Below, piece by piece: positions 40,520 to 61,325 of a stretch of 64,000 nucleotides of DNA. A program made the position numbers and the translations under genes. Within the stretch, counting starts at the first letter, position 1. Every line of letters begins with the position of its first letter. The notes beneath the pieces are model-generated. The model was given only the letters and a program-made list of their open reading frames with translations. It was not told where the DNA came from and made no database searches. Location: positions 800,001 to 864,000 of the forward strand of contig OY761611.1 in assembly GCA_963664875.1 (NCBI GenBank). The letters are read 5' to 3'. The stretch comes from Candidatus Kapaibacterium sp. Lineage in GTDB: Bacteria; Bacteroidota; Ignavibacteria; Kapaibacteriales; UBA2268.

Positions 40520-41674
40520 CTAATAGTAGTGCATCAATATCTGTTTGCCGTCTGATTTGCATTTTGCTGCAATGAGAGGTATAATTTTTGCTCGAGTCAG
40601 AAGACCTTTCTGCTTGAACTTAATATCTTTTGTAGCAGGATTTTGAGAAGTACCAATCATAAAGCGAATTTTATCAGCAAATTGTAAAGCATCTAATAGC
40701 TTTACAGCTGAATTGTTATCGTCCATCAGCACTCTGTCTTCGTCCCAAATATTATAGACCTGATTCAAAGTAATAGCCCCCTCCGTTACTAAGTCGATAC
40801 CCTCGATTTTACTAATGGGTGGAGTAAGCTCATCATGCAAATCACCTTCGAGTTCAATAGATTTTCCTGTTACCTGAGATACAATTTTTGCAGTCGAAGC
40901 TCCACATACAATCTTGGTACCGTCAAAAGCGAGAAATTTTTCTATAACTTCTCTATCCAAACTTTTATTCGAAGGCGGCCCTGATAAAATATTTACTGTA
41001 GTTCCTTCTCGTCCCCAAGCAATGAGGGCAGTGGTGTCGTCGTCGTAGTTGCCTTTACATAGTTCATGTGCTTTCTGATTGATAGCAGAAGGCAATTCCA
41101 TGTAGTGCATTCTTTCATTGAGTCGTTCATTGATAAATCGATTTAAACCGGCAGACTCCCACCCCATACGAAGACCTCTTCCGAGACCTGCCTGAGTGAT
41201 ACCGTCACTGACAATTACTAAGGCTTCCCGGGGCTTCATAAAACAATTGGACTCCCCAATTATGGCATTTTCAACGGTATAAGTCCTTTGAGGCAGCACA
41301 TTTGAGTATGAGGGTGTCATAAAAATTGGTGCAGGCATATCGTAGGTCAACACAGTTGTTCCGCCGTCTTTCATTATGCGTGCAACAGTAAAAACTGCAT
41401 AAGGCAGCCCGTTTTTTGCAGCATGATTCATAGTTTTAACCAAGCTGGTGAAAGCTCTACGCAGTGAAAACTCAGTCGCCATAAGCTCTTTTAGTCTTGC
41501 TACACACATAGTAGCAGCAATATTGGCTTTGATGCCGTGCCCTAAGCCATCGCTGACTATAATATATGTATTTTCGTTTCGCCTTTCCCAATGCATCACA
41601 TCGCCACATGGTTTGTTTGGATGTTTAGAATTTTGGATAGCTTCTATTTCGATATGTAAGTATCCCATAGCCAC
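40520..41674 (-). CDS. SpoIIE/PP2C-type Ser/Thr phosphatase (HfsC-like)
   Basis: CGD, SDGLGHG, SDGITQAG, DDTT; C-terminal GPP...KIVCG...DLVTEG domain. Confidence 0.9.
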   Translation of the reverse strand: MAMGYLHIEIEAIQNSKHPNKPCGDVMHWERRNENTYIIVSDGLGHGIKANIAATMCVARLKELMATEFSLRRAFTSLVKTMNHAAKNGLPYAVFTVARIMKDGGTTVLTYDMPAPIFMTPSYSNVLPQRTYTVENAIIGESNCFMKPREALVIVSDGITQAGLGRGLRMGWESAGLNRFINERLNERMHYMELPSAINQKAHELCKGNYDDDTTALIAWGREGTTVNILSGPPSNKSLDREVIEKFLAFDGTKIVCGASTAKIVSQVTGKSIELEGDLHDELTPPISKIEGIDLVTEGAITLNQVYNIWDEDRVLMDDNNSAVKLLDALQFADKIRFMIGTSQNPATKDIKFKQKGLLTRAKIIPLIAAKCKSDGKQILMHYY

Positions 41675-43434
41675 TTATCATCTTTTTTGTTTTCAACTTT
41701 TTCTTCATCTTCTGTGAGTTTCATGAGGTTTTCTACAAGTTCTTCGCCTCTTGCAGTACTTTCTCCCAGTAACTTAGCAATGTTTTGTGCCATTGTTACC
41801 TGATGGTCAAACAATTCCTGAGCCTGCATGATAGTTTTGCGTTTCATGGAACTCAATTTTACTTTATCAGCCAGACTGTTGGTAATATTTACAAAGATAC
41901 CAACATATTGCTTTTCTTCTTTCAATTTATAGATAATCTGGTGGCAAGTGATACCATATCTTTCGTGTTTTACTGTTAGCTCCATTTTGTCAGTATCCCC
42001 TGAAGCTACTTTTTGGAAAGGCTCCGGATCCATAAGGTATGAAATGTGTTTACCATTTACAGAATGAGTTGCCTGGAAAAACTTTCTGAATGCATTATTG
42101 GTATGGATAATATTCAATCGCAAATCAAGTATCACAATACCGTTTGGTGATGTTTCAATAATCCTATCTGTCCTTTGTTCAGCAATTTTTCTGACATAAG
42201 GAAGACACATATTGAGTTCTGCCATGCCCATTAGCACAGCAATTGCTTTTTCACGGCAAGTGTCATAGCCGCAGGATCCACAATTCAGATGATCTTCTTC
42301 TTTAGTTTTTCCCGTTTTTTCGAGAACTGAATTTATTTCATCTTCACTAAAGTTTGGTACGCAAACAGGTCTTTCTTCTGTGTAAGAAGAACAAAGCTGA
42401 AGGCTATCGTACAAATCTTCCGCATTAGTTACAGAATCATAAGTAATTCTGTTCTTTGCGTAATTTAGAATTCTTCTTTTCCTCTCAAAGATGTTTTCTT
42501 TCAATTCCACACCGGGACCATTGATGCACCCCTGAGAACAAAAAAGAGGCTCTATAACTAAAGTACCTGCAGTTTGCTTTGCCAATGCCAGCGACTCTTC
42601 TATTTCATCAAATCCTGATACAGAAAATATATCTGCAGAGAGTAAATCTGTATCCATTTCACCTGTGCGACTGCTACCTCCCATCAATGGAAAAAGCCTC
42701 GAATCACCAAGAGGCAGCTCGTCAAACTCACTTTCTTCGAATGTTTTTAAATCTATTTTTTCCTCAGCAAACCAATCATTCAACTCATCGAAAGTAAGTA
42801 CAACATCTATAAGGTTATCGTATTCATTTCTTTGAGCTTCAGCCTTTTTGGCAACACATGGACCTACAAAAACTATTTTGACATCATCTCCAAGTTTTGC
42901 TTTTAGGTGTTTAGCATGAGCAGCCATAGGAGAAATCACAGGAACAATATTATCAACCAAATTTGGCTGGTATTTTTCAATATAAGACACAACAGCAGGA
43001 CATGCCGAGCCTATATGAGCTTTGCCTTTGTTTGATTCTATATATTCTTTAGTTTTTTTTGCGACATAATATGCACCCACTGCTGTCTCAGAAATATGGA
43101 AAAATCTCATTGAACGCAATGCAGCAACTAATCTTTTTCTTTGCCATGTTTGATAGAAAGCGGCGTAAGAAGGAGCAATGGAAATAGCTACTTTGTTGTA
43201 ATCTGACAGAAATTTTTTGACTTTATCGGCATCTTTCCGATAAGTTTTAGCTTTCTGAGGGCACTCTCTGATGCAAGTCCCACAGGATATGCACATATCA
43301 TTATCAACATAAGCCTGCCCGTCGTACATTCTTATTGCTTTTACAGGGCAATGCCTTATACATCTGTAACAATCATGGCATTTGGCTTCGTTGGTGAAGA
43401 CAATCTGCCCCTGGACGCGTGGTACAAACTCCAT
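41644..43434 (-). CDS. Group C sensory [FeFe]-hydrogenase with PAS domain (HydS/HfsB-like)
   Basis: Two ferredoxin motifs; H-cluster motifs GSACP, GPCVAKKAE, EPLFCSQGCINGPG; CGSCGYDTC FeS domain; PAS (IIETSPNGIVILD). Confidence 0.9.
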   Translation of the reverse strand: MEFVPRVQGQIVFTNEAKCHDCYRCIRHCPVKAIRMYDGQAYVDNDMCISCGTCIRECPQKAKTYRKDADKVKKFLSDYNKVAISIAPSYAAFYQTWQRKRLVAALRSMRFFHISETAVGAYYVAKKTKEYIESNKGKAHIGSACPAVVSYIEKYQPNLVDNIVPVISPMAAHAKHLKAKLGDDVKIVFVGPCVAKKAEAQRNEYDNLIDVVLTFDELNDWFAEEKIDLKTFEESEFDELPLGDSRLFPLMGGSSRTGEMDTDLLSADIFSVSGFDEIEESLALAKQTAGTLVIEPLFCSQGCINGPGVELKENIFERKRRILNYAKNRITYDSVTNAEDLYDSLQLCSSYTEERPVCVPNFSEDEINSVLEKTGKTKEEDHLNCGSCGYDTCREKAIAVLMGMAELNMCLPYVRKIAEQRTDRIIETSPNGIVILDLRLNIIHTNNAFRKFFQATHSVNGKHISYLMDPEPFQKVASGDTDKMELTVKHERYGITCHQIIYKLKEEKQYVGIFVNITNSLADKVKLSSMKRKTIMQAQELFDHQVTMAQNIAKLLGESTARGEELVENLMKLTEDEEKVENKKDDKWLWDTYISK

Positions 43435-43624: not shown

Positions 43625-44932
43625 TTACAATTTGACAACTGTACGGAAATACATCATTGCACCAAGATCTTCACGATATTTCACTTCTGTTCCTTCAGTA
43701 TAGGCATAAATGTCTTTCATGTATTCGCCTTGCATAAAGAAACCACTTCCCCATTCGAAGAATACACCTTTTGTTACATTGTATTTGATATTCAAGTCGA
43801 TTTCCTGACCATAATCAGATTTATCGCTTACTGTTTTAGCATTAGTTGTAAACATGTGAGCGGCAACTGTAAATACCCAATCAGATTTAGCTCCACCGTA
43901 AGCCAGTGCTAAATAGAAATCATTAACTCCGGCATTTTTATAAGGTGCCATAGATACGAAATAATCCATGTTACCCATAAATTTGTGTTTAGCCGCTAAT
44001 TTGTTGCTGTAAGTATTGTATTTTTCTGTTTCGTCATAAGCAGTACCGGAAAGCATATCTAAACCTACGGACAGCTTAAGAGGATTGAAGTTATAAGATA
44101 CGTCAACTGCAGCTGTATAAGCAGCAATGTCTTTACCACCGTTATCCCCAAACTGGTAAGCACCTTCGATTGTAGTACCTAAATCACCATACTTGCCAAA
44201 ATAACTCATAGCTAAAGTAAATCTTTCTAAGGCATCTTGAGTTTCACCATCAACTACTATGTCTTTTGCATCATTTTCCGCAAAAATTGTAAAATCGAGG
44301 TCTGACTTATCAGTAAGATTGATACGTGAATAGATACCTGTAATGCAAAGTGCGTCAAAATCTGAGGCTTCATCAACCGGCCAATTACTTGGAACAGCTG
44401 CTACTTGCTGACCTGTGATTGCACCGATTTTTCTTTCATTCAATCGGAATAAATCGATCATCCATTTTTCTTGTTTTAAACCAAACCTAACACCGTCAAA
44501 TGATCTTTCAGTATAGCTCCAAAATGAGTTGGAAATAAACCTACCGGTGCCATAATTCATTTGAAAACGACCAACCTGAGCACTTAGAGGTACGTTAAAA
44601 ATATTATCAAATTTGACATACCCTTGTATCATCTCCAAGCTGCTGTTATCGCTTGTCAAGCTTGGCTCCTGTCCCCAAATGCGCGAATCCTGCATTTCCA
44701 TATTAAAGCCCACATACTTATTCAGCCATTTTTCAACACCTACTCGTGTTTTCATGCTTGAATATGTCTGCATATAAGTAGAGTTGTCAAAATCACGACC
44801 ATCTACATAAGGAATAATTTGTGACATACCGGAAATTTTCCATCCATCGTACAAATCAGTTTTGATTTCCTTTTGAGAATAAGCAGGAATAGATAACGCC
44901 ACTAATAAAATCATAGCAAGTAGCTTTTTCAT
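43625..44932 (-). CDS. Alginate-export (AlgE-like) outer-membrane porin
   Basis: QDSRIWG, GRFQMNYG..R......W....RSFDG, EGAYQFG, HKFMGNMDYF, GQEIDL motifs. Confidence 0.8.
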   Translation of the reverse strand: MKKLLAMILLVALSIPAYSQKEIKTDLYDGWKISGMSQIIPYVDGRDFDNSTYMQTYSSMKTRVGVEKWLNKYVGFNMEMQDSRIWGQEPSLTSDNSSLEMIQGYVKFDNIFNVPLSAQVGRFQMNYGTGRFISNSFWSYTERSFDGVRFGLKQEKWMIDLFRLNERKIGAITGQQVAAVPSNWPVDEASDFDALCITGIYSRINLTDKSDLDFTIFAENDAKDIVVDGETQDALERFTLAMSYFGKYGDLGTTIEGAYQFGDNGGKDIAAYTAAVDVSYNFNPLKLSVGLDMLSGTAYDETEKYNTYSNKLAAKHKFMGNMDYFVSMAPYKNAGVNDFYLALAYGGAKSDWVFTVAAHMFTTNAKTVSDKSDYGQEIDLNIKYNVTKGVFFEWGSGFFMQGEYMKDIYAYTEGTEVKYREDLGAMMYFRTVVKL

Positions 44933-45148
44933 ATTGTTTTACCCATAATTATACAATACTTCGTAAATACATTTCTACGCAGCAATATTATATTTATTGT
45001 TACTTTTAAATTCAAATAAACATATTCATATTAAAGATTATATGCTTTAATTATTGTATAGGTATTTAGGCAAGGCATAAAAAAAGACTGCCCCAAGGCA
45101 GCCTCAATTTATTTCTTATTCTGATTTCTTATTTGTTATTGCAAACAG

Positions 45149-45931
45149 CTATTTTACATTTAGACTAATGCAGTTGTCCTGATAGCCATCAACAGGCAAG
45201 GAAAGAGCACTCAATGTTACTTTTTGAGATGGGAATACATTTTTAAGCAATCCTATCCCTTCTGCATAATAGAAGTTACCAACTAAATCAAAACTTACAG
45301 GAATTGCAGTAGGAATGCCTTCAATCGTAGCATTACCGGATACATTGTATTTAATTTCTATTCTTCTTACGTTGTAGTCTTTATCACTTACTGTCAAAGT
45401 AGATTCCTCTTTCAAAGTACCTGTTATTTTCAAAGTGCCTGTGAGCACAGCTTTGACAGCCTCATAATTGATAGGCAAATTAGTCAAATTAAGAGAATAT
45501 ATCTCCCAAGAATTTTGAGTCAAATCTGCAATTGTTACCCATGACTGAGGTACAGGCAATTCAAATGGTAGAGACACCGGCAAAATATCAGAAACAAGAC
45601 TTTCTAATTTTTTACCGTTTGGAATAAAATGTTTATCTCTATTGTAACCGTCGCCGTCGAATTTGTAAATATAAGCATCTCTTGCTTGTATTGTTTCTTT
45701 ACCTGTTATAGTTACAGAATATTCTATGCGAGAGCTTTGGTCGATTTCGCCTGTAGATTCAGGTATATCAAAGGATTCGTATGTCCAAGTATCACCGACA
45801 GTTGCTGTGAAGAAATTTTCACCGACTGTAGGTGGATTAATCGGATTAGAATCATCATCATCGCTACAAGAGTTGATAAACACCATACCTGCAAAAAGCA
45901 AGATGATAGCAGCTAATTTAGTTTTTAGCAT
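45149..45931 (-). CDS. Lipoprotein, probably surface-exposed (paralog of neighbour)
   Basis: Lipobox INSC followed by SDDDDS; GDTWTY and YYAEGIGLL. Confidence 0.8.
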   Translation of the reverse strand: MLKTKLAAIILLFAGMVFINSCSDDDDSNPINPPTVGENFFTATVGDTWTYESFDIPESTGEIDQSSRIEYSVTITGKETIQARDAYIYKFDGDGYNRDKHFIPNGKKLESLVSDILPVSLPFELPVPQSWVTIADLTQNSWEIYSLNLTNLPINYEAVKAVLTGTLKITGTLKEESTLTVSDKDYNVRRIEIKYNVSGNATIEGIPTAIPVSFDLVGNFYYAEGIGLLKNVFPSQKVTLSALSLPVDGYQDNCISLNVK

Positions 45932-45939
45932 AAATTCTC

Positions 45940-46701
45940 CTATTTTATATTATATCTTAAAAGTTTTCTTACCATTCCCGGCATTTGCTGTGAGCCTAAC
46001 ATAGGAATTTCGATTTCAAAAGGATTTTGCTTTTGTTGTACCATACCAATTCCTTTTGCAAAGGAAACTTCCTGATTCAAGTCAATGCTAAATGACATGC
46101 CCAACAACTTTAATTTTACATCTACCGACATGTCAATAGAATAGTTTTGGCAAAGTATATTCTGTCCGGCAACTTCGATCATTGAGTCATCTAACCTTGC
46201 TCCGTCAGCTTCTATCTGAACTTCAACTTCGAACTGTTGGCCTCCCATATCAATGGTACGGGTTTCTTTATCAGTCTTGATTATTTTCCAATCCGCGTCA
46301 GCAGAATCCACAACCTGCAACCATTGCTCCTCGAAAAGCTCATCAGTTGGAAATCCATCCATACTAACTGAAGCAAGATAGTTACTAAAAGTAAAAATTT
46401 TAGAGCCATCTACACTATAATACACTTCATTGGTCTCATTGGTTGCAGCGTTCACAGAAATAAATATTTTACCTGTTTTATCTAATTTTGTTATAGTACC
46501 TTTCACGTATGTAGAATCAGTTTCTTCCTCGGTTGAGCCTTCAATTTCATAGACAGTATTATATATCCAATAGCTACCTTCTGTCATTGGGAACAAATCA
46601 CTTGATTTGACTGAAGGATTTGGCGAAACCGGCGAGTCTTTATCATCAGAACAGGCAAATGCAATAAATGCCATGAACAGAAGCAATAGATATTTTTTCA
46701 T
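45940..46701 (-). CDS. Lipoprotein, probably surface-exposed (paralog of neighbour)
   Basis: Lipobox AFAC followed by SDDKDS; GSYWIY and FAKGIGMV. Start moved to MKKYLL. Confidence 0.8.
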   Translation of the reverse strand: MKKYLLLLFMAFIAFACSDDKDSPVSPNPSVKSSDLFPMTEGSYWIYNTVYEIEGSTEEETDSTYVKGTITKLDKTGKIFISVNAATNETNEVYYSVDGSKIFTFSNYLASVSMDGFPTDELFEEQWLQVVDSADADWKIIKTDKETRTIDMGGQQFEVEVQIEADGARLDDSMIEVAGQNILCQNYSIDMSVDVKLKLLGMSFSIDLNQEVSFAKGIGMVQQKQNPFEIEIPMLGSQQMPGMVRKLLRYNIK

Positions 46702-46765
46702 TATATTATTCCTAAGAGTAAATTTATACACATTATAAAGTCAATTTAAGATATTTTTAGCTAAT

Positions 46766-46797
46766 AAAAAAGGCTAACCTTTGTCAAGGTTAGCCTT
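46766..46797 (-). terminator. Terminator after the T9SS-CTD cytochrome gene
   Basis: AAGGCTAACCTT/AAGGTTAGCCTT stem with an A-run (U-run on minus strand). Confidence 0.8.
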
Positions 46798-46823
46798 CAG
46801 TTTATATTCTAATTTGATAAGCT

Positions 46824-48206
46824 CTATTTTGTAAGTAGCATTCTCATCGTTGCTGAATATTCTCCTGCTGTAAGCTTGTAAATATAGGTACCTTGTGGTT
46901 CTGAGCTCAAATCCACAGAAGGGGCGTATTCATTTGCATTCATTTCATTCTCAATAACTGTTCTAATAAGTGCACCCTTCAGATCATATACTTTGAGACT
47001 AACAAAAGCTTTCTTATGAAGTCTAAATTTAATCTGCGTTTGAGATGATAAAGGATTAGGATAGTTTTGATACAAACTAAACATTTGGTTTTCGCGTTCG
47101 ATTACACTATTGGGATCACGGGTAAATCCAAGCTTTTTCATTTCATCAGCAGTTAAAGGTTCTGCATAGAACAAATGTGCATTATTTATTTGATTGCCAA
47201 GATAAGACCATTTAGTCATATCAGTAGCAGCAGTCGGGTCACCATCGTAGTCAACAAAATCAAACTTTAATGTTTTGTCCCAATCCAATGGAAGAGGAAT
47301 GACACCTTTCATATTATCTAATTTGTGAGTTTCTTCATTATAGGTCAACATCTGAATAACACCGGTATCGTTGTATGATTTTATAGCAACATTGGTACCA
47401 CCCATATTGTAATGACAATCGCTACAGGATTTTCCGTCTTCAACAATCAAATGACCTGTCAGAGGTGCTATTATTACATTTGTTTTTCCATTATAAACAT
47501 GAGTCATAAATGAGCCTGAAGTGTATTTACCTCTGCGTTTCACTAACATTTGAAAATCTTTAGTTTGTGTGTTTGCTCTTTTTATGTGTCCATCTATAAC
47601 AGATTCCATGTGACAATTTTGACACTGTACAACAGCTTTGACATGGCAAGCCTGGCATTCAAATTTTCCTGATTTTGCATGCATATTGTGTGCAGAATTC
47701 GAAGGTAAGTTTTCCTCTTTATGGCAATTAGTACATTTGGCTTTAATTGCACCCTCCGCCAACATTGAAGCATGCTGAACACCATCATCACCATGCAATT
47801 CTGAAGGTAGGTGACAACTCCAACATTTCATGCCGTGCTCAGAATGTGGATTCTCATGATCAGGATACATATTTGTCTCAGCCGTTTTTCGACTGTGGCA
47901 TGTAAGGCAAGTAGATTCAGAAATTGAATAGTTGTCAGCTGTATTATGACAATCTCTACAAGAAGGTTTATACGTGGCATTATCAACAACCTCACCGTCA
48001 GGATATTGGGTTGCATGGCAATTCTTGCAAGGCAACTTATCAATTTCTATTCCAATAAGAAGCTCCATCCCACCATTTTCTTTTTTATAAGCAGTGGCTT
48101 TGCCCTCTCTTGTGCTGTGAAGACTAGTGCTAAAATTTGCCTGTGACCAAATAATAATCGGCATGGAAATAATAGCAAGCATAATGAGTAAAAATCGCCA
48201 TTTCAT
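46824..48206 (-). CDS. Octaheme c-type cytochrome with C-terminal T9SS type A sorting domain
   Basis: Signal peptide; 8 CxxCH (CKNCH, CRDCH, CLTCH, CWSCH, CTNCH, CQACH, CQNCH, CSDCH); FSLYQNYPNP...LKVYDLKG...GTYIYKL...MRMLLTK. Confidence 0.9.
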   Translation of the reverse strand: MKWRFLLIMLAIISMPIIIWSQANFSTSLHSTREGKATAYKKENGGMELLIGIEIDKLPCKNCHATQYPDGEVVDNATYKPSCRDCHNTADNYSISESTCLTCHSRKTAETNMYPDHENPHSEHGMKCWSCHLPSELHGDDGVQHASMLAEGAIKAKCTNCHKEENLPSNSAHNMHAKSGKFECQACHVKAVVQCQNCHMESVIDGHIKRANTQTKDFQMLVKRRGKYTSGSFMTHVYNGKTNVIIAPLTGHLIVEDGKSCSDCHYNMGGTNVAIKSYNDTGVIQMLTYNEETHKLDNMKGVIPLPLDWDKTLKFDFVDYDGDPTAATDMTKWSYLGNQINNAHLFYAEPLTADEMKKLGFTRDPNSVIERENQMFSLYQNYPNPLSSQTQIKFRLHKKAFVSLKVYDLKGALIRTVIENEMNANEYAPSVDLSSEPQGTYIYKLTAGEYSATMRMLLTK

Positions 48207-48315
48207 AACAAGCTCCTATTTTGAAAGATATTTCAATACTAAAATACTTGTTAGCAATATAAATGAAATTGGAATGTTTGTCAATTATTATTATTATGTA
48301 ACCATTGTGTTGGAA

Positions 48316-49671
48316 CTATAAATTAACTTTGTCGATTTTTTGCATTTTCCCGTAGAAAATATCTTCTCCTTTTAATGATAATTTCCGTGCTATGTGTGAG
48401 TTTTTTATCCCAAAACGCACTAAATCATGTACAATTGACTTTGGATGAGAAAAAGGACAGACTTTCATGCAAAGTCCGCAATCAGTTCCTATATGACGCC
48501 AGTATAACAAGCATTTTTCTGGGTTCATCTGCCATTTTTCTACTCCTCTGATTATGGATTTATCATTTGACGGAATAGCTCCAGAAGGACAATTATTGGC
48601 GCATTTTTTACATAATTCGCAAAACTCCTGCACACCAAACTTAATTGGTTCACTCTGTAATAATGGCAATTCAGTAGTTACAACTCCAAGTCTAATGCGT
48701 GCCCCATATTGAGGTGAAATAAGATATCCCAATCTTCCAAGTTCACCCAAACCGGCATCGTGAGCAATTGCCGGCAAAATTACTTCATAGTTAGAGCCCG
48801 GTATATGTGCTTTTGCATCATATCCCATATTTTTGATAAATAGTTCTAATGCCATAGATATTTTCTGAGTATCCATATACTTTAGAGCGGTTTCTTCGGT
48901 TATGCAAATATTGGGAGCTTCATCTACTTTGAAATAATCCATTTCTACAGAATAAACCAAAGCATAATTATGGGTTAGATTTATCTCTTCTCCCCAAATT
49001 CCTGGTCCTCTGCCTCTGTGAGAATATACCCATCTATGATTGATTAATGTTGTACCTACTTCTGCTGCCCCAAGATGAATTGCTTTCTCTTTAAGGATTG
49101 ATGTGAACTCTTCTATAGTTTTATCAATTTTCTTACTATTTGTTGTTTGTGTTTGTAAGTAGCAGTTATTGTGCTGTATTTGAAAGAGCGAAGCAATATA
49201 TTTCGATTTAACCTCATCGTAATACTTAGTACCTTCCGACAATAACTCTGGTTTACGGCGAATTTTTTCGTCTATATTTAGGTTTTGCGGACGTAATTTG
49301 TAATATTCAACATGCTTAGAAGTACCATTTGCATACTCTTCTCTTGAAAACATACCGTCACGCTCATCAAATCTCTCATTTGATTCAAGAATTTTTAAGA
49401 AACTAGTGTTGCCTAATGGAATAAAATATAAAATTATAACACACAAAACTGCAACAGCTATATAGAAGACAAGGATTTGACTTAGTAAAAAACTAAAGGG
49501 AACAAAAAGCGCAACAAGAATCGCTATTGTCGTAGCAATTTTGAAAGCTCTTACTTTTTTCTCTTTGTTTGCCTTAAATGCAAAAGTAAACAACACAGTA
49601 CTTAAAGTGCTGAAAAACGCGCAGTTTAAGAGTCCTAAAACAGAAATCAAATCACTCTCCAATATCTTCAT
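48316..49671 (-). CDS. Reductive dehalogenase-like (cobalamin/2x[4Fe-4S]) protein with N-terminal TM helices
   Basis: LGAAEVG, WVYS, AHDAGLGELGRLG..I.PQYGARIRL, FCELCKKCANNCP, CGLCMKVCP; no Tat RR motif. Confidence 0.82.
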   Translation of the reverse strand: MKILESDLISVLGLLNCAFFSTLSTVLFTFAFKANKEKKVRAFKIATTIAILVALFVPFSFLLSQILVFYIAVAVLCVIILYFIPLGNTSFLKILESNERFDERDGMFSREEYANGTSKHVEYYKLRPQNLNIDEKIRRKPELLSEGTKYYDEVKSKYIASLFQIQHNNCYLQTQTTNSKKIDKTIEEFTSILKEKAIHLGAAEVGTTLINHRWVYSHRGRGPGIWGEEINLTHNYALVYSVEMDYFKVDEAPNICITEETALKYMDTQKISMALELFIKNMGYDAKAHIPGSNYEVILPAIAHDAGLGELGRLGYLISPQYGARIRLGVVTTELPLLQSEPIKFGVQEFCELCKKCANNCPSGAIPSNDKSIIRGVEKWQMNPEKCLLYWRHIGTDCGLCMKVCPFSHPKSIVHDLVRFGIKNSHIARKLSLKGEDIFYGKMQKIDKVNL

Positions 49672-50180: not shown

Positions 50181-52496
50181 TTAGATGGCTGTACTTACCC
50201 CAAGGGAGAAAGTTCTTGGGCGAACCGGTCCATATATATATCCGGAATCTCTATGCGCTCCCAAATCAAAGTCGTCCTGGAAGCTATTAAACATATTGTA
50301 AACGGAAAATGTTAGTTTAATCTCCGGCTCAATATCAATAAGCGTATAGGTAACTTTACTGTTAAATTCTACAAAACTTGGAGTTTCTACTAATTCATCT
50401 TCGGTAATTGCACCTTCAAATTCTGCACCTGCATAATGAGGTGTGAACATAGAGCCGGTAAACACTGCTGTTAAATCTAATTGCAATCTTTAATGCAGGG
50501 TCATAAATGCAGTCATGTAGCCGTACAAATCAGGAGTTCTTAGCATATTGTCAGTAGTTTTTGGTGCTATACCTTCGCTTGGAGTCCCTTCAGACCATCT
50601 CACAGGAGTGTCGTACTTGCTTGTTTGGTAAGTCAGTGCCGCCTGAAATTGGTAATCTCTCGAAAGTGAGACTTGTGCCTCGAATGTTAGTCCATTGACG
50701 TTTGCACCATCTCCGTTTGTTTTCAAAAAAACAGTATTTCCGGATCCGTCTTCGCCGATTTCTTCATTTACAAAAACATCTACTAAATTAATATTAAAGT
50801 ATTCTACTGAAAAAGAGACAGGCATACCAAATATTTCGTCACCATAATCTACAGAACCAGAGTATCCCCATGATCTTTCTTCTTTCAGATTTTCATCTAA
50901 TTTGATAATCTGTCTCACACCACCTCTAAGCTCTGCATGTAAATCATTGTCGTATGCCTGAGGAGCTCTGTAACCAGAAGTAAAACTTCCTCTAAGAGAG
51001 ATTTTGTCATTTAGTTTGAACATAGAGGTAACTCTCGGAGTGAGAATAACATTATCAACAAAGTTGTGCTTATCGGCTCTTAAACCAAAAAGCAAACTCA
51101 AATCTTCAGTAAAAAGCCAATCATTTTGGAAATAAAGTCCTAAGAGTCGGGTAGTTTGATTAAGACTAGCATTATAGCCTGTCGCTACATTTTCCACATC
51201 TTCATATTGAAAATCAACACCAGCTGAGAAAAAAGAACTACCGAACATGAACTCATCAAATGTATGTGTATATTGAGTACCTCCCACAGCTACAAGATTA
51301 TTTGTATAACCATAACCATTAGGATCTTTTTGTACACCGGTGTAGTTATCTCTATCTGTATGATTGAGAGAAGTAAATAGAGAGATTTGGTCTTTTCCGC
51401 CATTAAAAAAATGATTAAGAGTTAGATTACCCCCACTGACCTGATGCGTCAAATCTTCAGCCATAAGTGCAAGATGTGGCGGCAAATCTATATTATCACC
51501 ACCTCTTCTGTATTCGTTGAGACTATGGAGAGAGAGTGAGATCTTTGTAAAAGCATCAAAATTGTAGTATGCTTTTAGTCCTAAAGAATTTTCACGAATG
51601 TATGATGCTTCGGAAAAACCGTCACCATTTGCATCCCAAGCATCCCGTTCTCTGAAATTACCAAAAAGATAAACACCTGATTTATAATTATCACTAATCA
51701 TTGAGCTGTTTAACTGCAAGGTTTTGTCGGCAGAAGTTTCGTCTATTACACTATGCACATATTTTCCGGAAAATTGGTTTTTATTAGGCTCTTTAGTAAT
51801 AATATTAACTACACCACCTATTGCATTTCCTCCATATAATGCTGAACCGCCACCTCTTACAACTTCTACCCTTTCAACCATATTTGCCGGGATTTGATCT
51901 AAACCATATAATCCGTTTAATGCACTAAAAATGGGTCGGCTGTCAATTAGTATCTGTGTATATTGGCCATCTAAGCCATTCAGTCTGACTTGAGAAAAAC
52001 CACAATTCTGGCAGTTTGCTTCTACTCTTAGTCCGGGCTGGAATCTAATGCCATCTTTCAAAGATGCGGACTCGGTAGCTTCAAACACCTGAGAAGCTAC
52101 AAACGACATTTTGATTGGCACATCTTCGTACAGTTTTTCTGATTTAGTAGCAGTAACTACCACAGTGCCTGATTTTGAGGCTTTTTCCTTTAGAGAAAGG
52201 TTAATGTCAAATTTGTCGCCGTCTTCATGTTCAATCTTAACTGTGTAATAAAATGTTTCAAAGCCAACGGCTGTTATTCTTATCTTGTGTTCTCCGTCAG
52301 GCACATGTTTAAGTACAAATTCACCGTTTTTATTGGCAACAGCACCAATCATTGTGTTTTCAATCCTTACAGTCGCTCCCGGAATACCTTTTCCATCACT
52401 ATCGCTTACTTTGCCCCTAAGTATCCTGTCGTGAGCATATAAATGGTTTGTAATAACTACTAAGAATAAAAGAATAAAGACTATCGAATTACGCAT
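50181..52496 (-). pseudogene. TonB-dependent receptor interrupted by an in-frame TAA (50490-50492)
   Basis: ORFs 50490..52559 and 50181..50486 share a frame (...CAT TAA AGA TTG...) and align without gaps across the stop to the 14312 paralog. Confidence 0.85.
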
Positions 52497-52902
52497 TTTG
52501 TGAAACCTTATCATTAGTTGTAACTGAATTATTATGTACTGTCGCGATTCGCGAAACATACATATATTAGTTACGACTATATTTGATTTTAGTTACACAT
52601 AATACAGAGGATTTAATATCTAGAGTTTAACTTTTATAAAAATAAATGGGAAGCAGATATAAAGCTACTCAGAAACACTTTTTTTACCATTGCTCTCTAC
52701 CCTAATTCAAATCATGTCTCTAACATGACTACTAAATCGAAATAGATTACAAATGAATTTTAGATATTTTGCATATAGTATTTTATATTATATTACATTA
52801 TTATATTCTTTACAAGCAATATATGCTTGATTTTCAGCGTTTTTTTGTATTGTTTTGTATAGTTGTTAGTTTATCAAGTTATATGTTTAAGGAGTATATA
52901 AC

Positions 52903-53361
52903 ATGGCTTTATCACAAGTATCAGTATGTTGCGAAATGAAACAAGGTTTTCGCACTGAAGTTACAGCATCTCATAATTTCATTATAGATCAGCCTAAGAC
53001 TTTAGGCGGCACTGACGAAGGAGCAAATCCTTTAGAAGTGTTTTTAAGCTCGCTGGGTGGTTGTGTCTGTGCTATTGGCAGAATCATAGCAATGCAAAGA
53101 AAAATGGACGTTAGAGCAATCACTTGCAAAGTGGAAGGCGATATTGACAAAAGTGTGCTAATGGGCAAAAGCAAAGATGGTCGTGCAGGTTTTACAGAAA
53201 TCAGAACTTATGTAAATATCGATGCAGATATGACATTGGAAGAGAAACAATCATACCTCGAAGAAATCGAATCGCGTTGCCCGATTGCTGATAATATTTT
53301 GCACCTATCTACAATCAAACCTATAGTTGTTAATGCTGAGGAATTAGCAGTAAACAACTAA
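52903..53361 (+). CDS. OsmC/Ohr family protein
   Basis: DQPKTLGGTDEGANPLE...LGGC...RCP; AAGGAG SD. Confidence 0.92.
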   Translation: MALSQVSVCCEMKQGFRTEVTASHNFIIDQPKTLGGTDEGANPLEVFLSSLGGCVCAIGRIIAMQRKMDVRAITCKVEGDIDKSVLMGKSKDGRAGFTEIRTYVNIDADMTLEEKQSYLEEIESRCPIADNILHLSTIKPIVVNAEELAVNN

Positions 53362-53656: not shown

Positions 53657-55072
53657 ATGAAACTAAAACTTTTTGTGTCTGCATCTTTATTATTAGCAGG
53701 CATCATTGGGCTTTTTACTATTATTCAAAGTAAAGAAGCCACAAAAGAAAAGCACAATCATGCTGAGTACTTTGAAACAGCTTTTGCAACTCCTCAGGAC
53801 GTAACGAGAGCTTGCATTGAGTGCCATGAAGAAGAAGCTACAAATTTTCTTCATACACGCCATTGGAATTGGCTTGGTGATGAGTTTGAAAAAGAAGGTC
53901 ACGGCAAAGTAAGACTTGGGAAAAAAAATATTATCAATAACTTTTGCATCGCTGTTTCCTCAAATGAACCAAGATGCACCAGCTGCCATCCGGGATACGG
54001 TTGGAAAGATAATACTTTTGATTTTACAAATAAAGAAAATATAGACTGTCTTGTTTGCCACGATCAGACGGGCACTTACAAGAAAGTACCAACTGAAGCC
54101 GGCATGCCGGATCCGAAGGTTGATTTATTAGCAGTTGCAAAATCTGTTGGAAAATCTTCTGTAAATACATGCGGAAGCTGTCACTTTAACGGTGGCGGAG
54201 GTGCCTCAGTAAAACATGGAGATTTAGATCCTTCATTGCTCCAAAAAGACAAAAATATTGATGTCCACATGGGCGGTCAAGGTATGAGTTGCTCAGATTG
54301 CCACACTGCTTCTGATCACAAAATAAGTGGTGCAAGCCATGCTTCTATGACAGAAGGTAAAAACCACATTTCCTGCCAAAACTGCCATGAAGGTGCAAAA
54401 ATTCATAAAAATGAAAAAATCAACACCCACATGGAATCTTTAGCTTGTGAAACGTGTCACATCCCTGCTATTGGTAGAAACAATGCTACAAAAACATGGT
54501 GGGACTGGTCAACTGCAGGTACAAGAGAAGATGAAAAAGGACCTGACGGACATGATGTTTATGCTAAGAAAAAAGGCGATTTCAAATGGGAAAGCAACGT
54601 AATCCCTACTTACAAATGGACAAACGGCAAAGTTGACTATTACCTTGCAGGCGATAAAGTTGATGACACAAAAGTGCTCGAATTAAACATTTTAAAAGGC
54701 GATATTTCTGATCCAAACTCAAAAATTGCTCCTTTCAAAGTAATGCGAGGAAAGCAACCTTACGACCCTGTAAATAAATATCTGATTATTCCGAAGTTGT
54801 TTGGCAAAGACGGCTATTGGAAAACTTTTGATTGGGTGAAAGCATCTGAAATAGGTATGAAAAGCGTAGGGCTCGAATTTTCCGGCAAAGTAGATTTTAT
54901 CGAAACTGCCATGTATTGGTCTCAAAACCATGGTGTTACTCCAAAAGAAAAAGCACTCAAATGTACAGATTGTCACGGTACTAAAGCTACAAGAATTGAC
55001 TGGGCATCGCTTGGTTATGCCGCTGATCCTATGAAAAAAGGTGGCAGAAAGAAAAACAATCTTGTAAAATAA
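53657..55072 (+). CDS. otr: Octaheme tetrathionate reductase (OTR) family cytochrome c
   Basis: 8 CxxCH; HWNW...GKKNIINNFC...RCTSCHPGYGW, DCLVCHD, VKHGDLD motifs typical of OTR. Confidence 0.88.
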   Translation: MKLKLFVSASLLLAGIIGLFTIIQSKEATKEKHNHAEYFETAFATPQDVTRACIECHEEEATNFLHTRHWNWLGDEFEKEGHGKVRLGKKNIINNFCIAVSSNEPRCTSCHPGYGWKDNTFDFTNKENIDCLVCHDQTGTYKKVPTEAGMPDPKVDLLAVAKSVGKSSVNTCGSCHFNGGGGASVKHGDLDPSLLQKDKNIDVHMGGQGMSCSDCHTASDHKISGASHASMTEGKNHISCQNCHEGAKIHKNEKINTHMESLACETCHIPAIGRNNATKTWWDWSTAGTREDEKGPDGHDVYAKKKGDFKWESNVIPTYKWTNGKVDYYLAGDKVDDTKVLELNILKGDISDPNSKIAPFKVMRGKQPYDPVNKYLIIPKLFGKDGYWKTFDWVKASEIGMKSVGLEFSGKVDFIETAMYWSQNHGVTPKEKALKCTDCHGTKATRIDWASLGYAADPMKKGGRKKNNLVK

Positions 55073-57781: not shown

Positions 57782-57898
57782 ATTTTATCCGTTCCTACGT
57801 TAAATTTACCTAAGTTGTGTTCAAATTATTTGTTAATGTACCATTTTTTTTATTATATTATAGCATATTACTACTAAACAATATAAAGGGCATTTTTG

Positions 57899-58294
57899 AT
57901 GAAAGCAAAATACATCATTACGGCAATAATAGCAATAGCTTTTATAACTCTTGCATATTCTGCTTTTGATAGTAGCAAAATAGAATATACTGATTTTAGC
58001 TACGCAAAAAAAACCGGCAACAAAGTGCAGGTAACCGGCTCATGGGACAAATCGCAAAACTACACGTATGATGCAGAATCAAATACATTTACTTTTGTTA
58101 TGAAAGATGAAGCACAAAAAACATCCAAAGTAGTATATAAAGGTGCAAAACCAAACAACTTTGATATTGCCCCTATGGTAGTAATCAAAGGACAATTCGA
58201 AGGAGACACTTTTATTGCATCAGAAATTTTGACAAAATGTCCTTCTAAATATGAAGCAGATTTTGAAGAAATTAAAAAGAACACTAAAGTTTAA
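57899..58294 (+). CDS. ccmE: Cytochrome c maturation heme chaperone CcmE (CxxxY variant)
   Basis: N-terminal TM, V.Y.GAKPNNF...G, ILTKCPSKY. Confidence 0.92.
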   Translation: MKAKYIITAIIAIAFITLAYSAFDSSKIEYTDFSYAKKTGNKVQVTGSWDKSQNYTYDAESNTFTFVMKDEAQKTSKVVYKGAKPNNFDIAPMVVIKGQFEGDTFIASEILTKCPSKYEADFEEIKKNTKV

Positions 58295-58321
58295 ACTCTC
58301 AACTACTAATACTCGAAAGGA

Positions 58322-60694
58322 ATGCCTATGTTTGGCTCAATAATTATAAATGGACTTTTGATACTGTCCATCATTACAACTATTCTATACTATCTTTCCT
58401 TTAAAAAGGAAAACTTGCTGAAAACGGCTAGATCTTTTTACCATGTCATTACTTTAGGCATGATAGTAGCCTCTGCATATTTGATGTATAATGTGATGAC
58501 TCACAACTTCTCATTTACCTATATTTGGAGATATTCCTCTACAGAGCTGCCAAAATTTCTTTTGGCAACAACCTTTTATGCAGGACAAGAAGGCTCCTTT
58601 GCCTTATGGGCATTGATGCTATCTGTAATAGGTAGCTTGCTGATACCTTATGTAAAAAAACATAATTATGAAGCACCAGTGATGACAATATATTCTCTAA
58701 TTCTGGTATTTATCTTCTTAATTATGATAAACAAAAGTCCTTTTGAATATATTTGGGATTCGTTTCCGGATCAGAATATAGAGGCCGGATTTATGCCGGC
58801 TAATGGTAATGGGCTTAATCCTATTTTGCAGAACTACTGGAACGTGATACATCCACCGATATTATTTTTGGGCTTTTCCGCTATGTCTGTTCCTTTTGCA
58901 TTTGCATTTGCAGGCCTCATCAAAAGAGAATACCATAACTGGATAAAAGTATCTATGCCATGGACATTGTTTGCGACAGGTCTGCTCTCTCTCGGCATCA
59001 TGCTTGGAGGTTTCTGGGCTTACGAAACACTTGGTTGGGGTGGATTTTGGGGTTGGGATCCGGTAGAGAACGCTTCTCTGATTCCGCTGCTTACTGCTAT
59101 AGCACTTGTCCATACTATGCTTGTGCAAAAGAAGACCGGAGGTTTAATTCGTACTAATTTTGTTTTAGCGATTATAAGTTTTGTACTGGTAATATATTCT
59201 ACATTTTTAACAAGAAGCGGAATATTGGGTGATTCTTCTGTCCATTCATTCGGTGATCCGGGTAAACTGACTTATACATTATTGTTGGCATTTTTATCAT
59301 TTTTCACTTTAATTGGTATAATTGCTCTATTTGCAAGATTCAAAGACATAAGTAGAGTTGCCGGTAAATTAGAATTTCAGATGAGCTCTCGCGAATTTAT
59401 GCTATCACTCGGCTCTTTAGTTATCCTTGCTATAGCGGGCTTTGTTCTTGTTGGTACCAGCTGGCCTATTATACAGGAAGTTTTGGGACAGGCAAAAACA
59501 GGAGTTCAAATTTCCATCTACGATGCAGGCTCTCTCCCACTTACAGCTGTTGGATTAATTTTGATGGTATTTTCGGTATTTCTGAATTGGAAGATGACAC
59601 CTGCCGAATTATTAGTAAAAAAGATGTGGTTAGGTGTGCTTCTTGCTGCTATATTTACTAATGTTTTTATCTTTTTAGGCTATAACGAGTTTAAACATAT
59701 TGCTTTGGGATTTGCAGCATTTTTTGCTTTATTCTCAAATTTGGAATATTTAATCAAGACCGCAAGAAAGTACCCGAAATTGATTGGGGCTTACCTATCA
59801 CATTTTGGATTTGCTCTTCTTATTCTTGGGGTTATTGCTAGTGGTGGATATTCAGAATCTCAACAAATGACTTTAAAAGTCGGCCAGACTAAAGAGTTCA
59901 ACGGATATACATTCAAGTTTGTCGGTAAAAACCAAATAGAAAAGGAATTTAAAGACAGAGAAAAATTCCAGTATCTGGTCGAAGTAACTCATGACGGCAA
60001 AACAGATGTAGCTAAACCAATAATTTACTACAGTGACTTTAATCAACGCCAGCAACCATTTTTGGAACCGGGAATTTTGGAATCATTTTCTAGTGATATT
60101 TACCTGTCTCCAAACGTAGCAGACTACAAATATGATATTCCTATCATTTCCCTAGGAAAAGGCGACAAAATTGATGTACCTTTGGCTTCCGGTCTTGCTA
60201 TGACTGTAACAGGTTTTGACATGCAGTCTATGATGGGCGGAGATACAAACAACGGCACTCTTCCTTTTGGTGCGATAGTAGAGTTTTCCGATTCTGAAAG
60301 TACTTTTGTTGATACACTCTACTCCAATTTGGATCCACAATCATTTGTAGGCGAACCTAATTGGTTTACTTTAGAAAAGTACAATACAGACATTTCCTTT
60401 GTGCAGTTTATGCCTGATATGCAGGATATGGGCAAGTCAAAAGTTGCCTTTATTTTGAAAGAAGCAGGCAATGAGATGCCGGCACCGGTTGAATACTTTA
60501 GCTTCGAAGCATCTGTCAAACCACTGATTAATTTAGTTTGGGCAGGAACTATAGCCATAGTTGCCGGTTTCTTTATTGCTATCGGAAAATACACTAAATC
60601 GAAAGAAGCAGGCAATAATTTAGAAGATAATTCGGACAAAACAAAAACTGACAGCAATATTTTAGAAGAAAAACCGTATATTGCTAATAAGTAA
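58322..60694 (+). CDS. ccmF: Cytochrome c biogenesis protein CcmF
   Basis: GQEGS, GLNPILQ..W..IHPP, WAYETLGWGGFWGWDPVEN, TRSG...SVHSF, KPLINLVW. Confidence 0.95.
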   Translation: MPMFGSIIINGLLILSIITTILYYLSFKKENLLKTARSFYHVITLGMIVASAYLMYNVMTHNFSFTYIWRYSSTELPKFLLATTFYAGQEGSFALWALMLSVIGSLLIPYVKKHNYEAPVMTIYSLILVFIFLIMINKSPFEYIWDSFPDQNIEAGFMPANGNGLNPILQNYWNVIHPPILFLGFSAMSVPFAFAFAGLIKREYHNWIKVSMPWTLFATGLLSLGIMLGGFWAYETLGWGGFWGWDPVENASLIPLLTAIALVHTMLVQKKTGGLIRTNFVLAIISFVLVIYSTFLTRSGILGDSSVHSFGDPGKLTYTLLLAFLSFFTLIGIIALFARFKDISRVAGKLEFQMSSREFMLSLGSLVILAIAGFVLVGTSWPIIQEVLGQAKTGVQISIYDAGSLPLTAVGLILMVFSVFLNWKMTPAELLVKKMWLGVLLAAIFTNVFIFLGYNEFKHIALGFAAFFALFSNLEYLIKTARKYPKLIGAYLSHFGFALLILGVIASGGYSESQQMTLKVGQTKEFNGYTFKFVGKNQIEKEFKDREKFQYLVEVTHDGKTDVAKPIIYYSDFNQRQQPFLEPGILESFSSDIYLSPNVADYKYDIPIISLGKGDKIDVPLASGLAMTVTGFDMQSMMGGDTNNGTLPFGAIVEFSDSESTFVDTLYSNLDPQSFVGEPNWFTLEKYNTDISFVQFMPDMQDMGKSKVAFILKEAGNEMPAPVEYFSFEASVKPLINLVWAGTIAIVAGFFIAIGKYTKSKEAGNNLEDNSDKTKTDSNILEEKPYIANK

Positions 60695-60719
60695 TATACT
60701 ACATTTTTTAGGAGATCCT

Positions 60720-61325
60720 ATGTTTTTCAAAAAATTATCAACTTTAGCTTTAGTTCTTAGCGTAGCTTTTTCAACTGCTTGTAGCAGTGATGCAGACAAA
60801 GTTCAAACAAAAGATGTTGCATCAGCAACATTAAGTGCAGAAGCTCCTGCAAAAGAAAAATCTGTTTTTGAAATCAAAACAGTAAACCTAGGAGATCAGG
60901 TTTTACCTGATTTTACATGGGAACAAAACGGCAAAACAATCAAATTCTCTGACTATATAAAAGACAAAGTTGTATTTATAAACTTCTGGGGCACTTGGTG
61001 TCCTCCATGTAGAGCAGAAATACCTTATATCGTACAATTACAGAAAGAATATAAAGATAAAGATTTCGTAGTTGTTGGCTTTGCTTTAGAAAGAAATCCG
61101 GGCACAGAAGGTGTACAAAAATTTGTAGATGCTCAGGGTATTAACTATATAAACTTCATATCTTCGAGAACTGACCAAAATGCAATGCAAATTGTAAGTC
61201 ACTTTGGTCAAATCAATGCAGTACCTACTACAATGATTTTCAACAAAAAAGGTGAAAAGGTCGAAACAATCGTAGGTGGCAGAGATTACAAATCCTTCAA
61301 GGCTTCGATAGACAAAGCGATGTGA
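60720..61325 (+). CDS. TlpA/ResA/CcmG-like thiol-disulfide oxidoreductase lipoprotein
   Basis: AGGAG SD, lipobox STAC, NFWGTWCPPC, VPTT; follows ccmF. Confidence 0.88.
   Translation: MFFKKLSTLALVLSVAFSTACSSDADKVQTKDVASATLSAEAPAKEKSVFEIKTVNLGDQVLPDFTWEQNGKTIKFSDYIKDKVVFINFWGTWCPPCRAEIPYIVQLQKEYKDKDFVVVGFALERNPGTEGVQKFVDAQGINYINFISSRTDQNAMQIVSHFGQINAVPTTMIFNKKGEKVETIVGGRDYKSFKASIDKAM

Follow-up and report, generated by a model that had tools for sequence, protein, structure and literature searches.

The stretch analysed here (the window) comprises 64,000 nucleotides of contig OY761611.1 (positions 800,001 to 864,000, forward strand) from Candidatus Kapaibacterium sp. (GCA_963664875.1; Bacteroidota, Ignavibacteria), whose genome is complete, with 3.83 Mb and 36% GC. 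At window positions 46824-48206 lies the gene of an octaheme c-type cytochrome, the product of which was confirmed to combine a putative signal peptide, an eight-heme core and a type A C-terminal domain (CTD) for sorting by a type IX secretion system (T9SS). Homologues at E 0.001 or better number 917. The gene and its parts are as follows.

The cytochrome gene and its sorting domain

46824-48206, minus strand: octaheme c-type cytochrome gene with T9SS CTD, 460 aa (open reading frame (ORF), self-match P0001 at 100% and homologues as above; stop codon at 46824-46826)
48144-48206, minus strand: putative signal peptide, aa 1-21, with predicted cleavage between IWS and QANF leaving an N-terminal Gln (read from the sequence and alignments A1 and A3)
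48051-48143, minus strand: conserved N-terminal segment before heme 1, aa 22-52 (invariant columns of A1 and A3)
47412-48050, minus strand: heme-binding core, aa 53-265, with eight CxxCH motifs and distal His 121, 138, 173, 176 and 252 (alignments, hhalign)
47112-47411, minus strand: C-terminal alpha/beta subdomain of the core, aa 266-365 (predicted secondary structure, alignment A3, match to 1sp3)
47064-47111, minus strand: linker, aa 366-381 (stretch from where core homology ends to where the match of the CTD hidden Markov model (HMM) sets in)
46827-47063, minus strand: T9SS type A CTD, aa 382-460 (PF18962, TIGR04183, VIA, Foldseek)

A first-pass annotation, made from the letters of the window alone, had described an octaheme cytochrome with a Sec signal peptide and a type A CTD, and this architecture was borne out. 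The CxxCH motifs start at aa 60, 83, 100, 128, 158, 184, 195 and 261 and account for all 16 Cys of the protein; by chance, 0.0006 such motifs would be expected in 460 aa with the genome's own amino-acid composition, and three or more were found in 15 of 2584 genome ORFs of at least 150 aa. The N terminus (MKWRFLLIMLAIISMPIIIWS followed by QANF) has, as judged by eye, the n/h/c pattern typical of a Sec signal peptide, and alignment conservation sets in directly after this putative signal, at NFSTSLH (A1 and A3), S28, H30, G35, Y40 and G46 not varying among the 51 sequences of A3, which span many phyla, and R33 not varying in A1. Towards the other end, CTD-less relatives stop near aa 365 (A3), the structural match to 1sp3 extends to model residue 343-365, and the linker that follows would be the expected region of CTD cleavage by PorU.

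The CTD was matched above the cut-off by both PF18962 (39.2 bits, cut-off 27; aa 382-453) and TIGR04183 (37.8 bits, cut-off 23; aa 382-456 of 460, i.e., the extreme C terminus). In the full-length AlphaFold model (pLDDT 90.3, pTM 0.88), aa 373-460 superposed in VIA on the solved T9SS CTDs of PorU (6za2_B; Z 10.4, root-mean-square deviation (rmsd) 2.3, 86 aligned), mirolase (8qb1_A; Z 9.7), NucA (8glk_D; Z 9.5, 75 of 75 residues aligned) and PorZ (5m11_A; Z 9.0), values that many unrelated immunoglobulin-like (Ig-like) domains also reach. Foldseek searches with the same model returned Ig-like and CTD matches only (8glk_D with TMt 0.73), the heme core being seen by VIA-align instead. The known type A CTD cargo (gingipains, mirolase, NucA, ChiA) shares with the cytochrome a Sec signal, putative here, and the C-terminal beta-sandwich sorting domain, but differs in its passenger, which here is predicted to be a covalently heme-loaded redox protein. 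To our knowledge, the T9SS cargo known so far consists of hydrolases, adhesins and S-layer proteins.

The heme core, its relatives and their tails

The heme core (aa 23-365) is distantly related to octaheme tetrathionate reductase (OTR) and falls outside the OTR family. The AlphaFold model of the core alone (aa 23-368; pLDDT 92.3, pTM 0.90) was compared with 48,161 chains by VIA-align, eight of which reached Z ≥ 2, and the sole clear match was the OTR of Shewanella (1sp3_A; Z 9.6, rmsd 4.4, 231 residues, model residues 1-343), with OcwA as runner-up (6i5b_B; Z 3.0, rmsd 5.5, 173 aligned). The full-length model also gave 1sp3 as structural relative (VIA; 231-241 residues aligned across runs). 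None of the OmcS/E/Z nanowire and MtrC structures exceeded Z 3 in the comparison of the core, which is read as neither of the nanowire nor of the MtrC type, even though a result of this kind does not refute such kinship. A profile of 63 family members matched 1sp3 (E 4.4e-8), and hhalign against the window's own OTR (gene 53657-55072) gave a probability of 98% and E 1.5e-13, pairing hemes 1-6 of the cytochrome with OTR hemes 2-7 and leaving heme 7 of the cytochrome (C195) and heme 1 of OTR without counterparts. Because of these two hemes, and because the OTR HMMs TIGR04315 and PF11783 had no match to the cytochrome at E 0.01 or better, the core is regarded as distant kin rather than a member of the family. 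Thus OTR (Shewanella oneidensis SO4144, PDB 1SP3; TIGR04315/PF11783) has in common with it the eight CxxCH motifs, the overall core fold, six consecutive aligned heme motifs and a beta-rich C-terminal part, whereas in the cytochrome OTR heme 1 is missing, the C195 heme is inserted, the core is ~90 aa shorter and a T9SS CTD is added, OTR being periplasmic. The OTR-family octaheme gene of the window (53657-55072, plus strand; TIGR04315, 576.1 bits) lies beside an OsmC-like gene (52903-53361, plus strand), an OsmC homologue of which (45% identity) also occurs near the T9SS-cytochrome homologue in locus L012.

Four His (H30, H121, H176, H252) are the same in all 51 aligned sequences, and two more (H138, H173) are ≥ 90% conserved; these six conserved distal His for eight hemes leave room for one or two hemes with a different ligand or with an open site. 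The heme aligned with OTR heme 2 is preceded, at a distance of 24 residues, by an R-x-G-K motif with K36; of 131 motif instances, 115 have K at the last position, 10 have F, five have M and one has L. The active-site heme of OTR is reportedly ligated by a lysine just upstream of its motif, for which K36 is the putative equivalent in the cytochrome; the hhalign alignment stops short of the K36 segment, so K36 as a heme ligand is a lead only. In the part of PMC9250108 that was available, the five-coordinate heme of OTR is located in the N-terminal module. After CTD removal, the core would have 39.5 kDa or 4.9-5.6 kDa per heme, which falls between the ranges given for electron-transfer (< 5) and catalytic types (> 7; OTR 6.1) in the accessible part of PMC7096707. 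A homodimer prediction from two core copies returned no answer (score 0.00). OcwA and OmhA (Thermincola, Carboxydothermus; 6I5B, 6QVM) share the concept of an enzyme-class (NrfA/OTR-related) surface cytochrome that serves as a terminal reductase (accessible parts of PMC9250108 and PMC6703420), but their structural likeness is weak (as scored above for 6i5b_B), they carry 9 and 11 hemes, and they are anchored in a monoderm Gram-positive wall or S-layer with no T9SS export.

Tails and heme motifs were counted in the best 120 of the 917 homologues. PF18962 was present in 113 of them, the seven without it being 620-637 aa long; exactly eight CxxCH motifs were found in 109, seven plus one variant motif in seven, and 15 or 16 in four. 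The tandem 15/16- and 24-heme forms keep one CTD, at the very end, as in the 1163-aa 24-heme form of a Melioribacteraceae locus (single terminal CTD, 41.4 bits). Such double or triple octaheme modules (16 or 24 CxxCH; 786-1163 aa) were seen at L013:5904-9395, L008:6960-9347, L015:6930-9290 and L017:953-4390, and the N-terminal TSLHxTRxGK motif is kept in both repeats in two of the four 15/16-heme homologues.

A locus search with 14 closer sequences as query covered 42 species-genome loci, the closest relatives of the gene (78-80% identity) belonging to metagenome-assembled genomes (MAGs) titled Candidatus Kapaibacterium, Kapabacteria or Chlorobiota. The CTD was reached in 20 loci, 17 of which are titled as FCB-type (Fibrobacteres-Chlorobi-Bacteroidetes) lineages, namely Kapabacteria, Chlorobiota, Ignavibacteria, Melioribacter, KSB1, Calditrichota, Kryptonia, Cytophagia and Zhuqueibacter; of the three that are left, one is titled 'uncultured bacterium', one 'bacterium', and one is a MAG titled Deferribacteres. 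The remaining 22 loci (Bipolaricaulota, Fraserbacteria, Thermotogae, Acidobacteriota, Chloroflexota, Zixibacteria, Desulfurobacteriaceae, Archaeoglobaceae) end at the core, carry another extension or are fragments. Among the CTD-less relatives that were read, the Chloroflexota forms have a lipobox followed by a Pro/Thr-rich linker, the Archaeoglobaceae form has a lipobox, and the Bipolaricaulota and Fraserbacteria forms have an N-terminal hydrophobic membrane anchor.

In a maximum-likelihood tree of the core (51 rows), five Acidobacteriota-type sequences formed a clade (99/96) within a larger one (100/100) in which the other members carry the CTD, as do its sister groups; since this clade is nested among CTD forms, the tail was swapped at least once, and three tail changes were counted on the tree as a whole, with the window's own trimmed row set aside. 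The C-terminal extension of the Acidobacteriota type, ~270 aa long, ending in LTAFPVIPGRAD, unrelated to the CTD and with no Pfam match, may be another sorting or anchoring signal. It was seen in homologues P0078, P0081, P0085, P0091, P0100, P0104 and P0105 and at L022:7989-9833. Judged by these sequences, the tail matches the envelope type of the host and was exchanged, and no other comparative evidence speaks as strongly for a tail that works as a targeting device and for a module active at the cell surface. The octaheme core (~345 aa) is probably an old and widely spread module to which the CTD was added in FCB-group bacteria. The cytochrome is a new combination of known parts, from a large unstudied family (> 900 members).

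Export machinery, proposed function and alternatives

The first-pass annotation had further taken as established that Ccm attaches hemes in the periplasm and that the T9SS brings CTD-tagged proteins to the surface or into the medium, and had inferred a surface-displayed or secreted redox protein. Heme attachment by Ccm agrees with the ccmE and ccmF genes found in the window, 10 kb from the cytochrome gene:

57896-61325, plus strand: ccm genes, i.e., ccmE, ccmF and a thioredoxin-like ccmG-type gene (Pfam matches)
57896-58294, plus strand: ccmE (PF03100 CcmE, 57.8 bits)
58322-60694, plus strand: ccmF (PF16327 CcmF_C, 107.1 bits; PF01578, 94.5 bits)
60681-61325, plus strand: thioredoxin-like ccmG-type gene (Redoxin, 74.7 bits)

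These System I genes could attach the hemes of the cytochrome; maturation by System II was rejected, as ResB was not found in the genome and System I genes are present. Regarding the T9SS, matches above the respective cut-offs were obtained in the home genome for the translocon SprA (786.3 + 205.2 bits), the sortase PorU (864.7 bits) and the shuttle PorV (256.8 bits summed); SprA was also detected in every one of 41 class genomes. TIGR04183 had at least 150 matches in the home genome (all 150 scored of 202 candidates exceeded the cut-off), and in this genome-wide scan the CTD of the cytochrome scored 41.5 bits; no other multiheme ORF of the 15 appeared among the CTD matches listed. In a 608-aa ORF with five hemes, the ending of which resembles a CTD, PF18962 gave no match at E ≤ 1e-5. 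The proposed T9SS was therefore recovered in its SprA, PorU and PorV components and in its cargo, but not in gldKLMN/porKLMN, which were not detected. With SprA in all 41 class genomes, a large CTD repertoire and GldM in 0 of 19 class genomes, the class has a conserved translocon and no recognisable motor, and its T9SS may be a variant with an unrecognised motor.

With a probability of roughly 60%, we read the gene product as a T9SS-secreted, two-part redox protein that works as a terminal oxidoreductase at the cell surface. After Sec export and cleavage of the signal peptide, the eight hemes would be attached covalently in the periplasm by the nearby-encoded Ccm system; the CTD of the folded protein would then be recognised by PorV and SprA, the protein would pass the outer membrane, and the sortase PorU would remove the CTD, so that the core would be released or attached to a surface glycolipid. 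There, the 39.5-kDa core would carry electrons to or from substrates unable to enter the cell, for which metal oxides, humics and sulfur species are candidates, and because the eight hemes have only six conserved distal His, electron exchange at an OTR-like reactive heme would be possible. Given the CTD together with SprA, PorU and PorV, export to the surface as a redox protein, as first proposed, is likely, even if the motor genes were not detected; the export itself, the anchoring, the electron source and the substrate are steps that we infer.

The role in extracellular electron transfer (EET) that had been assigned to the protein is plausible, but as it was written it proved to be only one reading, since the core is kin to an enzyme, OTR, rather than to Mtr, Omc or nanowire cytochromes, and neither a porin nor a quinol dehydrogenase is conserved as a partner of the gene; a reductase of the OTR kind at the cell surface has to be taken seriously as an alternative. 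The conduits MtrCAB, Pcc OmaB-OmbB-OmcB and ExtABCD share the proposed task, i.e., bringing electrons to the outside of a diderm cell, but differ from the cytochrome in their predicted export route and in the lipobox, co-transcribed porin and periplasmic partner that it lacks (there is no Cys ahead of aa 60, and hence no lipobox of the MtrC/OmcA type). The first-pass annotation knew of no characterised example, and the full-text literature searched, with subscription-only papers outside its reach, likewise held no description of T9SS export of multiheme cytochromes. Secreted multiheme cytochromes have been predicted in Bacteroidota MAGs in a text that contains neither 'T9SS' nor 'type IX' (PMC11495043), and Ignavibacteria with porin-cytochrome genes have been described on anodes in a paper whose available part contains neither 'secretion' nor 'sorting' (PMC7399161).

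Several results weigh against the surface oxidoreductase. GldK reached at best 64 bits in the home genome (cut-off 350), the two weak matches being FGE-sulfatase plus TIG lipoproteins without L/M/N-like neighbours, and GldL, GldM (TIGR03517, PF12081) and GldN had no match there, the GldL and GldN searches being without a positive control and all four negatives leaving room for divergent homologues. The GldM model, which does work elsewhere in the phylum (matches in 20 of 81 sampled genomes), matched none of 19 genomes of this class. No gene could thus be assigned to the energising part of the T9SS, as GldK, GldL, GldM and GldN went undetected. The core gene is present in 10 of 61 genomes of the class, and its closest known relative, OTR, is an enzyme of soluble substrates. 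Finally, the cytochrome gene appears to be monocistronic, and its neighbours are syntenic only at 78-80% identity, so that no electron donor is linked to it.

The kinship with OTR bears on another possibility, namely that the protein, on the surface or secreted, acts as an enzyme on small soluble compounds (tetrathionate or polysulfide, nitrite, hydroxylamine or similar); it would use an OTR-like five-coordinate heme and would not serve as a conduit to solids. OTR is the sole clear structural neighbour of the core (Z 9.6; next Z 3.0), the profile and hhalign comparisons (E 4.4e-8 with 1sp3; 98% with the window's OTR) point the same way, and six conserved non-motif His face eight hemes. In addition, the R-x-G-K motif precedes the heme aligned with OTR heme 2 (the active-site heme of OTR being reportedly ligated by lysine), homologues adjoin rhodanese, DsrE-like and HdrD-like genes, and the OTR and OsmC genes of the window are 5-7 kb away. 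However, soluble substrates reach the periplasm, which would make export needless, and an exported enzyme would still have to be supplied with electrons; in 16 of 131 instances, F, M or L takes the place of K36, neither of the two OTR HMMs matches, and the tandem 16- and 24-heme forms look more wire-like. The 4.9-5.6 kDa per heme also lies under the 6.1 of OTR and near the electron-transfer class (PMC7096707, accessible part). Overall, we consider such an enzyme rather unlikely.

Still less probable is a periplasmic cytochrome whose CTD is a vestigial tag or a periplasmic docking domain in a class without a complete T9SS. The undetected GldK, GldL, GldM and GldN, with GldM in 0 of 19 class genomes, would fit such a protein, but the GldL and GldN negatives lack a positive control and the CTD is conserved (113 of the best 120 homologues) and was replaced, not merely lost, in Acidobacteriota. 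Moreover, at least 150 CTD matches together with SprA, PorU and PorV, and SprA in all 41 class genomes, would be hard to maintain without function. Electron flow in the reverse direction, in which a surface uptake protein would draw electrons from Fe(II) outside the cell, from reduced humics, from a partner cell or from a cathode, would be compatible with the reversibility of multiheme chains, with the fact that no result here fixes the direction and with the PAS/sigma-54 regulators adjoining homologues, suggestive of redox-responsive control, but no Cyc2 or MtoA-type iron-oxidation genes were seen beside the cytochrome gene and relatives lie in islands with reductase-type partners (NrfA-like, NapC-type), which makes it very improbable.

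Going beyond the surface oxidoreductase itself, we tentatively propose, at somewhat less than even odds, a joint reading in which the T9SS is a third, undescribed diderm route for assembled multiheme cytochromes, besides porin-cytochrome complexes and T2SS (type II secretion system)-/pilus-linked nanowires. An ancient OTR-like module would be targeted by the device of each envelope (the CTD in FCB bacteria, a lipobox and linker in Chloroflexota and archaea, another tail in Acidobacteriota) and concatenated to 16-/24-heme surface wires, and extracellular respiration would be widespread in Ignavibacteria, Kapabacteria, KSB1 and Calditrichota via a T9SS without a recognisable GldLM motor. If this holds, heme-loaded respiratory cargo would widen what the T9SS is thought to carry, and the electroactivity and iron reduction of Ignavibacteria-type bacteria, of which there are repeated reports (PMC7399161, available part), would gain a concrete mechanism that can be put to the test. 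The family also offers a natural experiment, in which one redox module was re-targeted across very different cell envelopes, and the finding points to a T9SS variant without detectable GldLMN.

Transcription, neighbouring genes and other cytochrome loci

Three short features flank the coding sequence of the cytochrome:

48256-48284, minus strand: Sigma-70-like promoter match TTGACA-17-TATATT, 11/12 (consensus match only, in the 109-bp upstream gap)
48213-48217, minus strand: AGGAG ribosome-binding site (upstream gap)
46769-46798, minus strand: intrinsic-terminator-like hairpin, 13-bp stem followed by a T run, starting 26 nt past the stop codon

The promoter scan was noisy (48 sites vs. 32.1 expected in shuffles), while the terminator scan gave 10 sites vs. 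3.7 expected, the 13-bp stem of the cytochrome being among the two longest. No sigma-54 promoter was seen by eye upstream of the gene. Only loci L003-L006, the relatives with 78-80% identity, share the gene order (deaminase, reductive dehalogenase (RDH)-like, cytochrome, two lipoproteins, AlgE-type porin, HydS-like, SpoIIE), and by BLASTP these neighbours occur in none of the other 38 loci. An operon with the RDH-like gene, the lipoproteins and the porin was rejected on these grounds: the promoter-like site, the terminator and the narrow synteny together argue for a single transcription unit with no demonstrable partner.

The gene directly upstream of the cytochrome (48316-49671, minus strand) belongs to the RDH family (TIGR02486, 182.4 bits, cut-off 160.35); its product has an N-terminal hydrophobic region in place of a TAT (twin-arginine translocation) signal and shows 66-68% identity in four close relatives. 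Downstream (43625-46731, minus strand) come two paralogue-like lipoproteins, matched by neither Pfam nor NCBIfam, and after them an outer-membrane barrel of the AlgE type (Alginate_exp); a terminator-like hairpin closes each of these units. The lipoproteins are the fastest-evolving genes of the block, with 45-54% identity where the cytochrome has 78-80%. The most conserved (90-94% identity in relatives) lie at 40520-43434 (minus strand), where a HydS-like sensory [FeFe]-hydrogenase homologue with a PAS domain overlaps a SpoIIE/PP2C phosphatase gene. Further off, a TonB-dependent receptor gene (50181-52559, minus strand) is split by an in-frame TAA (50490-50492) into ORFs of 689 and 101 aa, its orthologue in L006 being one ORF of 771 aa; selenocysteine was rejected, as the stop is TAA, in favour of a pseudogene or a sequencing error.

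In more distant FCB relatives, the cytochrome homologues have PAS/sigma-54 activators (L009, L012, L013, L018) and CcdA and thioredoxin genes as neighbours, and in L013 rhodanese lipoproteins and a 10-heme lipoprotein of the ExtKL-like kind stand nearby as well. Two loci (L009:11447-12571, L012:10401-11540) encode a further T9SS-CTD protein at a distance of 1-2 kb from the homologue; its N terminus is TAT-like, and it carries two CxxCH motifs and a putative redox domain (C_GCAxxG_C_C). The CTD-less relatives of the Bipolaricaulota type stand in respiratory cytochrome islands that comprise an 18-heme NapC fusion, a 9-heme protein, cytochrome b and Rieske genes as well as NrfA-like genes and ResB/CcsA.

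The home genome holds a cytochrome island of its own, 410 kb from the cytochrome gene (G000:C1:1256961-1266241, L062), with a rhodanese lipoprotein, a 10-heme lipoprotein, a 702-aa fusion of cytochrome b561 with a six-heme part, and 13-, 4-, 6- and 12-heme proteins, two of the cytochromes being separated by a 404-aa barrel-like protein (P0121). This island could be a porin-cytochrome-like conduit across the outer membrane, and we infer that it may be linked to the T9SS cytochrome. The genome-wide CTD list also contains tandem arrays of CTD-tailed paralogues, with ORFs of ~440-500 aa and a few shorter ones, for example at G000:C1 1109253-1116040, 2200500-2206020, 2593257-2598147, 925083-931161 and 1823036-1827665.

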